From: Escherichia phage ID32
Reading direction: 5' to 3' (one strand)
Length of the DNA: 6,071 nt
Sequence record: NC_007819.1
Shown here: positions 1-6,071 of the stretch, piece after piece
Layout: each line of letters begins with the position of its first letter
How positions within the stretch are numbered: the first letter of the stretch is position 1
Translations under genes and position numbers: made by a program
Notes under the pieces: generated by a model
What the model was told of the DNA's origin: nothing
Databases searched by the model: none
The model's input: only the letters and a program-made list of their open reading frames with translations

Positions 1-3
1 TTG

Positions 4-42
4 TTGACATACTCTAATCCCTTATGAGACTCTTGCTTCAAC
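4..42 (+). repeat. Degenerate upstream copy of the gene-A promoter region (TTGACAT...CTCTAA...CTTAT...TGCTTCA); left arm of an imperfect direct repeat with 700-738
   Basis: Direct comparison: 4-42 ttgacatactctaatcccttatgagactcttgcttca versus 700-738 ttgacattcctctaacccaccccttatagtgccttca. Perfect TTGACA -35 hexamer at 4-9, but the -10-like TTATGA sits only about 12 nt downstream, so promoter activity is doubtful. Confidence 0.4.
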
Positions 43-66
43 GAAATGACGCAGGAGTCTTTGCTT

Positions 67-435
67 ATGAAACCCGCACATCGCTTAACCCATCCGGTCC
101 TCGGTTCTTGGTTGTTTAAGTGCCCTGTTTATATCCGTTATGAACACCTTCATCATGGTCGTCTTATTAAGGTTCGTGCCGTTCGCGATTTGTCCCCTCG
201 CCAACAGCTTATTGCTAACCCTAAAAATTGCTTTGATGTTGTTATCGCTGAGATTGATGTTACCTATGGCTCCATCACTTGGTTTGATTATGAGCATGAG
301 GAGTATGACGAGTTTGATCCTGATGTTATAAATGGCCTCGTTAACTACATTGATATTCCTCACGTTATCCGTTCTGAGGAAGACCCTTCTGTCGATATTG
401 ATGATATGGATTGGCTTTATGAAATTGCGGAGTAA
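67..435 (+). CDS. Hypothetical protein, 122 aa, basic N-terminal half and strongly acidic C-terminal half (accessory ORF1 in the H-A region)
   Basis: ORF in the six-frame track (46..435). The ATG at 67 is preceded by AGGAG (55-59) at 7-nt spacing; the ATG at 46 is in frame but lacks an SD. TAA stop at 433-435 lies 3 nt before the next ATG. About 21 of the last 65 residues are D/E (e.g. YEHEEYDEFDPD, SEEDPSVDIDDMDW). No homolog recognised from memory. Confidence 0.55.
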   Translation: MKPAHRLTHPVLGSWLFKCPVYIRYEHLHHGRLIKVRAVRDLSPRQQLIANPKNCFDVVIAEIDVTYGSITWFDYEHEEYDEFDPDVINGLVNYIDIPHVIRSEEDPSVDIDDMDWLYEIAE

Positions 436-438
436 ATC

Positions 439-525
439 ATGGAAACTGTTGTCGGAAAATTTATTGCTTTGGCTATTGTTGCTCTTATGCTGTATGGAGT
501 TTCCCGTTTGATTAGTAGGACTTGA
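439..525 (+). CDS. Hypothetical 28-aa hydrophobic peptide, possible single-pass membrane peptide (METVVGKFIALAIVALMLYGVSRLISRT)
   Basis: ATG at 439 preceded by GGAG (429-432) at 6-nt spacing; TGA stop at 523-525 is 1 nt before the next ATG. Uninterrupted hydrophobic core FIALAIVALMLYGV. Below the ORF-track length cutoff, found by manual translation. Confidence 0.35.
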   Translation: METVVGKFIALAIVALMLYGVSRLISRT

Positions 526-526
526 A

Positions 527-703
527 ATGAAGTATTTTAGCCTTGTGGATGAACACTATGCTTATTGCCCTGATTCGCGCATTTTGCACATCACTCGTAG
601 TCGTGTTTCTGACCCTCGGTATGAGCGTCGTTTTCTTACTGATGAGGAGCATTTTGCGCTTTTGGATTGGTTAAAGAGTCGCCCAACATACATTAATTCT
701 TGA
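527..703 (+). CDS. Hypothetical 58-aa protein, Arg-rich (MKYFSLVDEHYAYCPDSRILHITRSRVSDPRYERRFLTDEEHFALLDWLKSRPTYINS)
   Basis: ATG at 527 preceded by AGGA (517-520) at 6-nt spacing; TGA stop at 701-703 lies inside the -35 hexamer of the gene-A promoter. Manual translation; not in the ORF track because under 60 aa. Confidence 0.45.
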   Translation: MKYFSLVDEHYAYCPDSRILHITRSRVSDPRYERRFLTDEEHFALLDWLKSRPTYINS

Positions 704-729
704 CATTCCTCTAACCCACCCCTTATAGT
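700..729 (+). promoter_or_regulatory. Sigma70-type promoter for gene A (P_A): TTGACA (700-705), 18-nt spacer, TATAGT (724-729)
   Basis: Consensus -35 hexamer and near-consensus -10 read directly; position immediately upstream of gene A matches the known P_A location in phiX174-like phages. Confidence 0.6.
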
Positions 730-759
730 GCCTTCAAAGTATTACTTTGAGGGCTTTTT
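730..759 (+). promoter_or_regulatory. Stem-loop plus T5 run in the gene-A leader; stem overlaps the gene-A SD (GAGG 749-752)
   Basis: GCCTTCAAAG (730-739) pairs with CTTTGAGGGC (745-754): 10 bp with one G-U, 5-nt loop, followed by TTTTT (755-759). Lies between the P_A -10 and the A start codon at 763. Confidence 0.5.
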
Positions 760-762
760 CCT

Positions 763-2247
763 ATGGCTACTGAATTATTCTCTGACGTTGTAAAAGCTAC
801 GTGGTCTCACGCTACTGCTAAGCACCCTCACCTTCGCATGGCTGTACAGGTTGATAATCGCAGTCGTCTTCTCTCTGATTTGGTTTACCAGCTGGAAAAA
901 CGCCTCTCTGAAGAGACTCATCTGGATGATGAGACTTATGCCCTTTATGAATCTCAAACCGGTCTTTTGGAAGACCATATGGCGCTGGTTCGGAAGTGTG
1001 CTGCCCAACTTGATAATAGTAACACTATAGACCACCGTACCCCTTTGGATGCCGAATGTGTTTTCCTGTTTGAAATGATTTGCCCAGGTGTTCGTTACGG
1101 TAAAACGTTGAATTCTCTTTGGACTAAGTATGTTGCTCAATGGCCTGAGAAGTTGATTCGTCAAGAGTTAGACATGGTTAAGCCTTTGTCCTTTAAGGAT
1201 GAAGTTGCTAAGTACATGGAGAAGATGCAGGAAAAAACACGCAAAAATCGCATGACTCAAAAAGTAATTAATGAGATGCGTATCGCTCACCAAAAGGGCT
1301 GGTTTTTCGTATTTGATACGTTGACACTTGCTGATGACCGTTTGCAGGCTTTTAATGAAAACCCCAATGCTCTTCGTGATTATTTCAGGACTGTTGGTCG
1401 AGCTGTTCTGCGCGCTGAAGGTCGTTCGGTTAAGGATTCCTACAACGACTGCTATCGCTATCTTTGTGTGCCGGAGTTTGGAGGCCAGCATGGCCGTCTT
1501 CATTGGCACGTTGTGCATATGGTGCGGACTCTTCCTTTGGGAAGTCACGACCCTAATTTCGGTCGCAAGGTTCGTAATTATCGCCAGATTAACTCGTTCC
1601 GTGGAATGTGGCCTTATGGCTTTACGCAACCGATAGCTGTACGCTATCAACATGATGCTTATTCTCGTAAAGGTTGGCTGTGGCCTGTTGACAAAACAGG
1701 AAAAGCAATGCAGAGTAAGCCCTATCAGGCGGTCGCATGGTATGTGACCAAATATGTGGCTAAGCAATCTGACCAGCGTCAGAAAGCTATTACTGAGAGA
1801 CAAAAAAAATGCAAGAATCCACTTATGGCAATCTGTCTGAAAAAGGAATTCAGAGTTCGCAGCAGCCGGAAGCTCGGAATGGAGTTACCGTCGATGGCGC
1901 ATCTCAGCAACAAAGTGCTTCTGGAGCTGAGCCGAATCAGCTTCGATTCCAGCCCTCTGTATCAGATAGTGAAAGAGAACGCCAAAAAGCAATTGACCTT
2001 GAACATCGGCGCGCTGCCTTTGCACGTCATTTTGGATGTGCGCCCGGAAGTGAGAAGTATGTTGAAAAATATCCGTCGTTTGATGAAAAAGACACCCGAG
2101 TTCAATTGGCAGAGTTCTATCGCTTCCATGACGGTCACCTTAAAAAATGGGGATATTTCTGATGAAGCACGTCAATACATTATTGATGCAGGAATTACGC
2201 CTTTTGATTTGCGAGCTAAAGCGACTCAAACTTTCGGCGGTAAGTGA
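763..2247 (+). CDS. A: Replication initiation protein A (HUH rolling-circle endonuclease), 494 aa
   Basis: Long ORF with strong similarity to phiX174 protein A as recalled (e.g. GWFFVFDTLTLADDRLQAFNENPNALRDYF, GRLHWHVVH HUH motif, paired catalytic tyrosines in AWYVTKYVAK, C-terminal FGGK). An in-frame TGA at 748-750 excludes any upstream extension. Confidence 0.95.
   Translation: MATELFSDVVKATWSHATAKHPHLRMAVQVDNRSRLLSDLVYQLEKRLSEETHLDDETYALYESQTGLLEDHMALVRKCAAQLDNSNTIDHRTPLDAECVFLFEMICPGVRYGKTLNSLWTKYVAQWPEKLIRQELDMVKPLSFKDEVAKYMEKMQEKTRKNRMTQKVINEMRIAHQKGWFFVFDTLTLADDRLQAFNENPNALRDYFRTVGRAVLRAEGRSVKDSYNDCYRYLCVPEFGGQHGRLHWHVVHMVRTLPLGSHDPNFGRKVRNYRQINSFRGMWPYGFTQPIAVRYQHDAYSRKGWLWPVDKTGKAMQSKPYQAVAWYVTKYVAKQSDQRQKAITERQKKCKNPLMAICLKKEFRVRSSRKLGMELPSMAHLSNKVLLELSRISFDSSPLYQIVKENAKKQLTLNIGALPLHVILDVRPEVRSMLKNIRRLMKKTPEFNWQSSIASMTVTLKNGDISDEARQYIIDAGITPFDLRAKATQTFGGK
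1006..1035 (+). other. Viral (+) strand rolling-circle origin; predicted protein A nick site between G1012 and A1013
   Basis: CAACTTGATAATAGTAACACTATAGACCAC closely matches the conserved 30-nt phiX174 origin (CAACTTG^ATATTAATAACACTATAGACCAC, from memory) and sits inside gene A as in phiX174. Confidence 0.8.
1216..2247 (+). CDS. A*: A* protein (in-frame internal initiation within gene A); start codon uncertain
   Basis: By analogy with phiX174, where A* begins at an internal Met near MKSRRGFA. In-frame ATGs in the homologous region are at 1216, 1225, 1252 and 1276; none has a convincing SD. Confidence 0.3.
   Translation: MEKMQEKTRKNRMTQKVINEMRIAHQKGWFFVFDTLTLADDRLQAFNENPNALRDYFRTVGRAVLRAEGRSVKDSYNDCYRYLCVPEFGGQHGRLHWHVVHMVRTLPLGSHDPNFGRKVRNYRQINSFRGMWPYGFTQPIAVRYQHDAYSRKGWLWPVDKTGKAMQSKPYQAVAWYVTKYVAKQSDQRQKAITERQKKCKNPLMAICLKKEFRVRSSRKLGMELPSMAHLSNKVLLELSRISFDSSPLYQIVKENAKKQLTLNIGALPLHVILDVRPEVRSMLKNIRRLMKKTPEFNWQSSIASMTVTLKNGDISDEARQYIIDAGITPFDLRAKATQTFGGK
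1809..2162 (+). CDS. B: Internal scaffolding protein B, 117 aa, overprinted within gene A
   Basis: ORF in the track; C-terminal AEFYRFHD...GYF matches phiX174 B; a different frame from A, as in phiX174. Confidence 0.85.
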   Translation: MQESTYGNLSEKGIQSSQQPEARNGVTVDGASQQQSASGAEPNQLRFQPSVSDSERERQKAIDLEHRRAAFARHFGCAPGSEKYVEKYPSFDEKDTRVQLAEFYRFHDGHLKKWGYF

Positions 2248-3092: not shown

Positions 3093-4376
3093 ATGTCAAA
3101 TGTACAGACTTCCGCTGAACGTATCCCTCATGACCTGTCTCATCTGGTTTTTGATGCAGGCAAAATTGGTCGTTTAAAAGTTGTTTCTTGGACTCCTGTT
3201 GTTGCAGGTGATTCTTTTGAGCTTGATATGATTGGCGCTATTCGCCTTTCTCCGCTTCGTCGTGGCCTTGCTGTTGACTCTCGCGTTGACCTGTTCACGT
3301 TTTATGTCCCTCATCGTCATGTATATGGTGAGCAGTGGATTGAGTTTATGAAGCAAGGTGTTGATGCTGCTCCTTTGGCCCCTGTTCAGTGCTCTCGTGG
3401 TTGGGATAGTGCTCAGTATCTTGCTACTATTCCGTCTAGTAACTTAAAGGTTCCTAAGTTTCTTCATCAAGGTTACCTGAACATTTACAATAACTACTTT
3501 AAAGCTCCGTGGATGGATGACCTGACTTATGCCAACCCGTCCAATATGGAAGGTGAAGATGTTCGTTTTGGTGTTCGTGCATGTAACTTGAAAACTATTT
3601 GGACCGCTCCGCTTCCTCCGGATACTGAAACCTCTCATTCTATGGAGACTGAAACCAACTCCATTGATATTATGGGTTTGCAGGCCGCTTATGCTCAATT
3701 ACATACTGAGCAGGAGCGTGATTACTTCATGACTCGTTATCGTGATATTGTTAACGAATTTGGTGGTAGCACTTCTTATGATGCGGATAATCGTCCTTTG
3801 CTTGTTATGCACTCTGAGTTCTGGGCCTCAGGCTATGACGTCGACGGCACCGACCAAAGTTCTCTTGGTCAGTTCTCCGGTCGTGTACAGCAGACCTTTA
3901 AGCATTCAGTACCGCGATTCTTCTGCCCTGAGCATGGTACTATGTTCACACTCGCATTGGTCCGCTTCCCGCCGACTCATGAAATGGAGATGCATTATTT
4001 AGTTGGTAAAGAAGATTTGACTTATACTGATTTGGCTTGTGACCCTGCTTTGATGGCTAACTTGCCTCCGCGTGAGGTTAATATGTCTCAGTTCTTCCAT
4101 TCTGGAAGTGCTAGCGCTAAGTTTAAGATCGCTGAAGGTCAGTGGTATCGTATGCAGCCTGACCGCGTTGCATTGCCGTATAACTATCTTGATGGTTTTC
4201 CGTTCTATAGTGCGATTCCGTCTAATGATATTAAACAGCGTGTTCTGGTTAATACTGATAACTACGATGAGGTTTTCCAGTCTATGCAACTTGCTCACTG
4301 GAATATGCAGACTAAGTTCAACTGCACGATTTATCGTAATATGCCGACCACTCGCGACTCTATTATGACCTCTTGA
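3093..4376 (+). CDS. F: Major capsid protein F, 427 aa
   Basis: Extensive similarity to phiX174 F (RLSPLRRGLA, FTFYVPHRHVYGEQWI, QGYLNIYNNYFKAPWM, YDADNRPLLVM, GTMFTLALVRFPP, TTRDSIMTS). Confidence 0.97.
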   Translation: MSNVQTSAERIPHDLSHLVFDAGKIGRLKVVSWTPVVAGDSFELDMIGAIRLSPLRRGLAVDSRVDLFTFYVPHRHVYGEQWIEFMKQGVDAAPLAPVQCSRGWDSAQYLATIPSSNLKVPKFLHQGYLNIYNNYFKAPWMDDLTYANPSNMEGEDVRFGVRACNLKTIWTAPLPPDTETSHSMETETNSIDIMGLQAAYAQLHTEQERDYFMTRYRDIVNEFGGSTSYDADNRPLLVMHSEFWASGYDVDGTDQSSLGQFSGRVQQTFKHSVPRFFCPEHGTMFTLALVRFPPTHEMEMHYLVGKEDLTYTDLACDPALMANLPPREVNMSQFFHSGSASAKFKIAEGQWYRMQPDRVALPYNYLDGFPFYSAIPSNDIKQRVLVNTDNYDEVFQSMQLAHWNMQTKFNCTIYRNMPTTRDSIMTS

Positions 4377-5093: not shown

Positions 5094-6071
5094 ATGTTAG
5101 GTGCCGTTGTAGGTGGTATTGCTTCAGCCTTAGCTGGTGGAGCCGCTTCTAAGCTGTTTGGTGGTAAACCTGCCGCTCAAGCCGCTACCGAGTCCTCTGG
5201 CCTTTCTAATGGTCAAGGTGTTATTGGTATGGATCAAGATGCCGGTATTCAGTCCGCTATTCAGGGCTCAAATGTCCCAAATGGTCAGATTCCTGCTCCC
5301 ACTACCACAGGCGGTGTTATGTCTGATGCTGGCAATATGATTAAGAATGCTGGTAAAGATTTGCTTGATGGTGTCATGACTGCTGGTAGTGACCGAGTTA
5401 AGCAGGCTTTGATTGATAAGTTAGGTGGCAATAATGCAAAGAGACAAGGACAAGCAACCCGTGATTACTTGGCTGCGGCCTTCCCTGAGCTCAACGCATG
5501 GGAGCGTGCTGGAGCTGGTGCTTCCGGCGCCGGTTTGGAATCTTCCAGCCAGGACCAACAGAAAGAATTAATGCGGATGCAGCTGGACAACCAGAAAGAT
5601 ATTGCGAAGATGCAGATGCAGAATAATTTGCAGATTGCAGGCATCCAGTCCGCTACTTCTCGTCAAAATACGAAGGATTCTGTTTATGCTCAGAATGAAA
5701 TGCTTCAGTACAATCAGCGTGAGTCGCAAGCGCGTGTTGAGTCCATCCTTGCCAACACTGACCTTACGGCTAAACAGGCCACCCATGAAATTATGAGAAT
5801 GGCTCTTACTCGTGCTCAGGAAACTGGTCAGCATTTGACTAACTCTCAGATTATGGCATTGGAGAAAAAGGTTTATGCAGAAATCGGAAAAATTCACCAA
5901 GATACTCAAAACGCTCGTTATGGTAGCTCTCAAGTTACTGCTGCGGCGAAAGATGTTACAAATATGATTTCTGATGCTGCTGGTGGTGTTGCCGATTGGG
6001 CTTCTCAGCAGTGGAATTCTTTCTTTAAGGATGGCAAGTCTAATGGTATTCCTTTAAATACCCGAAAATAG
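5094..6071 (+). CDS. H: Minor spike / DNA pilot protein H, 325 aa
   Basis: Gly/Ala-rich N-terminus (GGIASALAGGA.SKLFGG) and long matches to phiX174 H (TRDYLAAAFPELNAWERAGA, IAGIQSATSRQNTKD.VYAQNEML, QNARYGSS); AGGAG at 8 nt upstream; stop is the last codon of the window. Confidence 0.93.
   Translation: MLGAVVGGIASALAGGAASKLFGGKPAAQAATESSGLSNGQGVIGMDQDAGIQSAIQGSNVPNGQIPAPTTTGGVMSDAGNMIKNAGKDLLDGVMTAGSDRVKQALIDKLGGNNAKRQGQATRDYLAAAFPELNAWERAGAGASGAGLESSSQDQQKELMRMQLDNQKDIAKMQMQNNLQIAGIQSATSRQNTKDSVYAQNEMLQYNQRESQARVESILANTDLTAKQATHEIMRMALTRAQETGQHLTNSQIMALEKKVYAEIGKIHQDTQNARYGSSQVTAAAKDVTNMISDAAGGVADWASQQWNSFFKDGKSNGIPLNTRK

Follow-up and report, generated by a model that had tools for sequence, protein, structure and literature searches.

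We found that the TGA stop codon of ORF3, the last of three small genes between genes H and A of an alpha3-like microvirus, lies inside the -35 hexamer TTGACA of what is very probably the gene-A promoter (P_A), and that this overlap is most probably a by-product of genome compaction, with three nucleotides in dual use, and not a regulatory coupling. The ORF list and the promoter scan agree on the coordinates of the stop codon and of the hexamer, which are those given in the original prediction. It had further claimed that ribosomes terminating ORF3 and RNA polymerase initiating gene A transcripts use the same nucleotides, and that the module end and the A promoter are thereby physically coupled. 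The first part holds in the sense that 3 nt are under a dual evolutionary constraint, but the second does not, as ribosomes act on the mRNA and RNA polymerase acts on duplex DNA. The overlap is in itself unremarkable: one of the three frames of TTGACA reads TGA, and any ORF entering the hexamer in this frame, an a priori chance of about 1 in 3, has to end there. Taken alone it matters little, adding one more case to the nucleotides known to be in dual use in compact genomes of ssDNA phages; of more interest are two by-products of the analysis, a duplicated composite promoter-hairpin element and a series of natural variants (phiK, NC35 and L041).

The DNA analysed (the window, 6,071 nt) is the complete genome of an alpha3-like microvirus (Bullavirinae, genus Alphatrevirus), numbered from directly 3′ of the gene H stop codon, so that gene H occupies 5094-6071. 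Over window 1-800 the closest public relative is phage ID21 (90%), with phiK, NC29, NC28, WA13, St-1 and alpha3 at 79-85%, and the nearest of all the relatives found is L068, a contig from a metagenome (about 92%). The H-A gap of 762 nt contains three ORFs on the same strand (ORF1, ORF2 and ORF3, hereafter the cassette), and the features discussed below are collected in Table 1.

Table 1. Features of the H-A region of the window and of gene A.
Feature	Position	Strand	Remarks
H-proximal promoter-like element	4-33	+	TTGACA 4-9, TRTG motif 23-26, weak -10; putative function
Upstream hairpin and T-rich run	26-61	+	ORF1 Shine-Dalgarno AGGAG (53-57) in 3′ arm
ORF1	67-435	+	122 aa from conserved ATG 67; dN/dS 0.18
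ORF2	439-525	+	28-aa hydrophobic peptide; dN/dS 0.36
ORF3	527-703	+	58 aa, ATG start; last gene of the clade-specific H-A cassette; conserved coding gene
-35 hexamer TTGACA of P_A	700-705	+	6/6 consensus match (promoter scan)
ORF3 stop codon TGA	701-703	+	Bases 2-4 of the -35 hexamer; local reading AAT TCT TGA CAT
P_A spacer	706-723	+	18 nt; length fixed, sequence variable among relatives
-10 hexamer TATAGT of P_A	724-729	+	5/6 match; TATATT in relatives; deleted in NC35
T_H-like intrinsic terminator (predicted)	730-759	+	11-bp hairpin 730-754, then TTTTT 755-759
Predicted P_A transcription start	736	+	By homology to phiX174 3962
Gene A Shine-Dalgarno GAGG	749-752	+	Within hairpin 3′ arm (745-754); read from sequence
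Gene A, replication initiator	763-2247	+	Annotated gpA in relatives

The segment 700-729 matches the promoter consensus at 11 of 12 hexamer positions, the only site that good found in the window by the promoter scan, and it lies on the + (coding) strand, 34 nt 5′ of the gene A ATG. Matches of at least 11/12 arose 0.126 times per simulated genome when either strand was counted; the bare TTGACA hexamer is not enriched (five found, 4.25 expected). We compared 28 distinct junctions, of which 25 came from GenBank, IMG/VR and assembled read sets. The other three are new ones on metagenome contigs, given by a metagenome scan; each is of the standard type, and the remaining 25 matches of the scan were unrelated. 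TTGACA is kept in 27 of the 28, the exception being phiK with TTGGCA, and TATA(T/G)T stands exactly 18 nt downstream in 27 of the 28, the exception here being NC35. The pattern TTGACA-N18-TATANT matches 34 loci, with N18 invariant. When the relatives are aligned, little or no variation is seen in the columns of the hexamers, whereas most of those of the spacer vary, and the CA at 704-705, which lies outside ORF3 and is non-coding, is invariant. Since the hexamers and their spacing are kept over a variable spacer, in a layout homologous to the pA-T_H element of phiX174 and G4, the segment 700-729 is very probably the gene-A promoter. Alignment of the junction across alpha3-like phages, the check that had been proposed together with the original prediction, also bore out the overlap, as ORF3 ends on the TGA of TTGACA in the window and in 35 of 38 related loci, with phiK (two copies) and the NCBI assembly contig L041 as the exceptions.

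From window 700 to the gene A ATG, the parts and their order are those of the combined promoter and terminator pA-T_H in the H/A intergenic region of phiX174 (nt 3918-3980), which consists of TTGACA, 17 nt, TTTCAT, G, CCTCC...GGAGG, CTTTTTT and ATG, and in which the pA -35 at 3927-3932 is the positional homologue of window 700-705. According to the phiX174 RefSeq record, the first nucleotide of pA transcripts is 3962, which is the 7th nt past the -10 and falls within the hairpin 5′ arm. This position maps to A736 of the window, where the context is GCCTTCA as compared to GCCTCCA in phiX174, and we infer both the activity and the start site of P_A from this homology; it matches the start near 736 that had been predicted. 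In the literature searched we found no transcript data for alpha3-like phages, only secondary mentions. For phiX174, a saturation mutagenesis preprint reported that 15 of the 35 substitutions found to be detrimental in pA affect the -35 hexamer, that 11 of 18 changes to the pA -10 are detrimental, that the TRTG extended -10 motif is essential, and that the GGAGG at 3969-3973 lies in the 3′ stem of T_H, which overlaps the gene A ribosome binding site (RBS) (bioRxiv 10.64898/2026.07.25.740675). RNA-seq of phiX174 by Logel and Jaschke gave a net 0.29-fold change in transcription at the combined pA-T_H element (10.1101/2020.03.05.979765).

There are also differences between the two elements. That of phiX174 follows the gene H stop codon after 9 nt of non-coding sequence, whereas the P_A element follows ORF3, and the phiX174 -10 is a degenerate TTTCAT with a TATG extension, whereas the -10 of the window is near-consensus. 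Unlike phiX174, the window has the stop codon of the upstream gene inside the -35 and a second element of this kind directly 3′ of gene H. Hence, if pA-T_H is defined as following gene H directly, it is not the P_A element but the weaker copy at 4-66 that does so. In G4, the H/A region reads TAA-TGC-TTGACT-N18-TAATAT-G-hairpin (CCTCC...GGAGG)-CTTTTC-ATG, with the same layout and 18-nt spacing as in the window, but there is no cassette, and the gene H stop codon lies 3 nt 5′ of the -35 and not inside it. This shows the layout of phiX174 pA-T_H to be ancestral to all three clades of coliphage microviruses. Nucleotides are likewise in dual use elsewhere in the Bullavirinae, namely where pB lies in gene A, pD in gene C and the RBS in T_H (for phiX174, 10.64898/2026.07.25.740675), as well as at ATGA and TAATG stop-starts. 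What sets the window apart from these overlaps is that the bases are shared between a -35 hexamer and a stop codon, at the boundary of a cassette, an arrangement of which we found no description in the literature searched.

The downstream hairpin begins 1 nt after the -10 and has 11 pairs, 5 GC, with a folding energy of -15.3 kcal/mol; the gene A ATG is 8 nt past the stem. Over the aligned relatives, 89% of cells are paired, compared to 36-50% with the partners slid, and two pairs show compensatory changes, so that the covariation is modest. An Rfam search of window 1-900 returned no family. Together with its T-run, the hairpin has the sequence features of an intrinsic terminator and is predicted to act as one. 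An RNA beginning at 736 folds at only -3.8 kcal/mol.

We consider it probable, and hold this with fair confidence, that 700-762 is a copy of pA-T_H, comprising a sigma-70 promoter with its start at about A736 in the 5′ arm of a terminator which carries the gene A RBS in its 3′ arm, and that ORF3 runs into the TGA of this copy, the overlap reflecting compaction and not coupling. Transcripts made upstream would carry ORF1-3, and the ribosomes translating them would be released at UGA 701-703, 26 nt 5′ of the hairpin and too distant to hinder its folding. The hairpin would then fold, most of the upstream transcripts would end at about 755-760, and the gene A RBS would be sequestered in the stem. 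On the duplex replicative form, RNA polymerase would bind 700-729 and start at about 736, and the resulting RNA would escape the terminator because it lacks the 5′ arm of the hairpin, which would also leave the gene A RBS free. This series of events is our reconstruction from beginning to end.

A second composite element is found at the other end of the cassette. From the gene H stop codon onward, the sequence reads TAG-TTG-TTGACA(4-9)-N13-TATG(23-26). The -10 may be GACTCT at 28-33, spaced by 18 nt, or GAGACT at 26-31, spaced by 16 nt, and matches the consensus at 2-3 of 6 positions. The element is conserved in all relatives, in which the variation between TATG and TGTG fits the TRTG motif, and in phiK it scores 10/12 as a promoter (TTGACA-16-TAGACT). 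Its hairpin folds at -18.9 kcal/mol in the window and at -20.1 kcal/mol in alpha3, where a 14-bp stem is followed by TTTTTT; 92% of cells are paired, a figure that falls to 41-55% when the partners are slid, and compensatory changes are absent. Gapped alignments, controlled by shuffling, showed the consensus of the upstream element (window 1-69) to resemble phiX174 pA-T_H (z 5.8) and the clade consensus of the downstream element to resemble G4 (z 4.0). Aligned with gaps to each other, the two copies of the window gave z 5.3 and the two clade consensuses z 2.0. From its sequence, the three-gene cassette thus appears to be bracketed by two promoter-hairpin-RBS elements, with TTGACA 700 marking the right-hand boundary. 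A long direct repeat bracketing the cassette was considered and rejected, since the ungapped repeat finder detected no repeat flanking it and the signal is a gapped one only, which points to a shared layout with weak similarity. The spacer of the window (706-723) resembled the upstream copy, and gene conversion between the two TTGACA copies was also considered; it was rejected because L028, L029, L041, L063 and L068 share this spacer and hairpin type, which indicates a diverged lineage.

The H-proximal element could supply gene A transcripts by read-through. This leads to an alternative in which 700-729 is not a working gene A promoter, gene A is expressed from the element at 4-33 or by read-through from P_B/P_D, and TTGACA is the ORF3 stop together with a relic of an ancestral pA. 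It would account for the high conservation of the upstream element and for its likeness to phiX174 pA, including the TRTG motif, and it draws on NC35, in which a 29-nt deletion (about 695-730 of locus L014, window 706-738) takes out the spacer together with the -10 and the hairpin 5′ arm but keeps TTGACA and the ORF3 stop codon. A scan of the first 861 nt of NC35 found no promoter-like or terminator-like site left. As NC35 was isolated as a viable phage, P_A is not indispensable in every member of the clade, and the description of the gene-A promoter as essential was too strong for the clade, given that NC35 lacks the -10 and phiK has TTGGCA. However, the same deletion removes the terminator, and with this arm gone read-through should be able to substitute for the promoter. 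Moreover, TATATT stands at exactly 18 nt in 27 of 28 sequences despite the drift of the spacer, which a relic would not maintain, nor would one expect of it an invariant yet non-coding CA at 704-705, and the -10 of the upstream element is poor. We therefore regard it as unlikely that 700-729 is inactive, and retain the reading of this segment as the promoter of gene A.

Also improbable is a selected coupling, by which the end of ORF3 translation would set the passage through the terminator into gene A, since the folding of the hairpin would be governed by ribosomes that finish at the -35 or past it, or could set how strongly P_A is occluded. It is supported by phiK (695-734 of locus L002, window 700-739), where the change to TTGGCA makes the hexamer weaker and at the same time abolishes the stop codon, so that ORF3 gains 12 codons, reaches 70 aa and runs to a TAG within the hairpin 5′ arm. 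Ribosomes which reach this TAG could melt the terminator and in this way compensate for the weaker -35. In addition, the -35 consensus fixes the base after the ORF3 stop codon and thereby forces a UGA-C context (701-704), which is the leakiest stop context in E. coli by textbook knowledge. On the other hand, the stop codon lies 26 nt before the hairpin, beyond the footprint of a ribosome, in 26 of the 28 distinct sequences, and phiK is a single lineage that was sequenced in the early 1990s. In L041, an extra A frameshifts the tail of ORF3 to a TAA located 6 nt upstream while TTGACA remains intact, although this frameshift may be a homopolymer sequencing error. The variants phiK, NC35 and L041 dissociate the stop codon from the promoter and constitute a natural allelic series for the interplay between promoter, terminator and upstream translation in front of a replication gene.

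By its substitution pattern ORF3 is a real gene, with purifying selection confined to its frame. The mean dN/dS of ORF3 is 0.076, which is as low as that of the gene A N-terminus (0.10), whereas the same DNA read in the other two frames gives 1.0 and 1.9. In an alignment of 15 H-A regions, the variable columns of ORF3 are distributed over the codon positions as 13/7/31, and the 58-aa frame is intact in the 35 of 38 loci named above, which span about 20% nucleotide divergence. A GGAGG Shine-Dalgarno sequence precedes the ORF3 start in relatives, and in most of them it stands before a GTG start which overlaps the ORF2 stop codon as GTGA, suggesting translational coupling between ORF2 and ORF3. 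That ORF3 is not a gene and the stop codon in the -35 is just the end of a chance open frame, as could be thought from its missing annotation in most GenBank records and from the absence of a protein family or fold match, appears already contradicted by this substitution pattern and is hardly credible in view of the intact frame, the GGAGG with a GTG/ATG start overlapping the ORF2 stop, and the extra conserved frames of the clade listed in PMC2935103.

Protein searches found homologues of ORF3 only in alpha3-like genomes of about 6 kb, and it has no Pfam and no PHROG match. An AF2 model (single-sequence, pLDDT 74) has four beta strands and one helix in the order beta-beta-beta-beta-alpha, and in it residues 55-58 have a pLDDT below 50 and are predicted to form a disordered tail. 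This tail is also the least conserved stretch of the protein, and its low conservation and predicted disorder fit a frame that runs on until it meets the TGA of the promoter. A Foldseek search of the model against the PDB gave nothing significant, the best match being Pur-alpha (E 0.5). The leading matches were Pur-alpha and Sub1/PC4-type binders of single-stranded nucleic acids, at an E of about 0.5 and a TM of about 0.3, which is far from significant and a mere lead. In the window and in NC29, the junction with ORF2 (519-530) reads TGA-A-ATG instead of GTGA and is preceded by a weaker AGGA. Read-through of the ORF3 stop codon would add 30 codons in the window and 12 in most relatives.

ORF1 and ORF2 also appear to be coding, from their dN/dS values (Table 1). 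ORF1 has homologues in alpha3-like phages only, as judged by protein search, and none of the three ORFs has a match in Pfam or PHROGs. Most GenBank records of alpha3-like phages leave ORF1-3 unannotated, with Lilleven listing hypothetical proteins; the three nevertheless look like real genes. Conserved extra reading frames in the alpha3 clade are on record in PMC2935103, which cites 2006 work on five such frames; like these, ORF1-3 are conserved and specific to the clade.

Several variations concern ORF1 in particular. An additional in-frame ATG at position 46 is present in the window, ID21 and L068 and would lengthen ORF1 to 129 aa. This ATG sits in the loop of the upstream hairpin without an obvious Shine-Dalgarno sequence, and the conserved start is at 67. 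In St-1 (locus L012, GQ149088), a 1-nt deletion at about 226-232, corresponding to window position 231 or so, cuts ORF1 into the frames 23-349 and 226-432, while ORF2 and ORF3 are intact; ORF1 is thus either dispensable in that stock or affected by a sequencing error. An older record of alpha3, X60322, similarly lacks 1 nt of ORF1 when compared with DQ085810.

We then considered the claim that the overlap constrains how the gene module could have been gained or lost. All 24-25 records with an alpha3-like 3′ end of H or 5′ end of A carry the cassette, and there is no member of the alpha3 clade without it among these records, so that no event of gain or loss is visible and the claim finds no support. 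If anything, the two bracketing elements would facilitate unequal recombination and not hinder it. About 400 G4-like and phiX174-like records matched only short conserved pieces of H and A, amounting to 36-38% and 23% of the queries; in the H-A region there was no match to any of them. Hence, as far as the available sequences indicate, the cassette is a fixed feature which defines the clade. We searched by tblastn and blastn for an origin of the cassette by duplication of the beginning of gene A or the end of gene H, or from phiX174 or G4, with nothing convincing, the best E-values being 0.01-0.02 on a tiny database. Nor does the coding part of the cassette detectably resemble any other part of the genome, phiX174 or G4. 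In practical terms, any engineering or deletion of the cassette must preserve TTGACA 700-705.

A more far-reaching scheme, which we offer as a speculation and consider improbable, is that the two composite elements, that of ORF1 and that of gene A, are tandem copies of an ancestral one, and that the cassette between them is an insulated transcription unit which arose, and could in principle be lost again, by unequal recombination. In such a scheme the position of the ORF3 stop codon would tune read-through into gene A, and in variants of the phiK type the ribosomes would enter the 5′ arm of the terminator and act as a translation-dependent antiterminator that offsets the weak -35.

The H-A region recombines freely within the clade. 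Over window 527-610 the sequence has 100% identity to NC29 and over 436-526 it has 96% identity to L030, whereas the lineage nearest to it over 700-860 is a different one, that of L028, L029, L041 and L068. The ancestry of 436-860 is thus a mosaic, with recombination breakpoints near the ends of ORF3.
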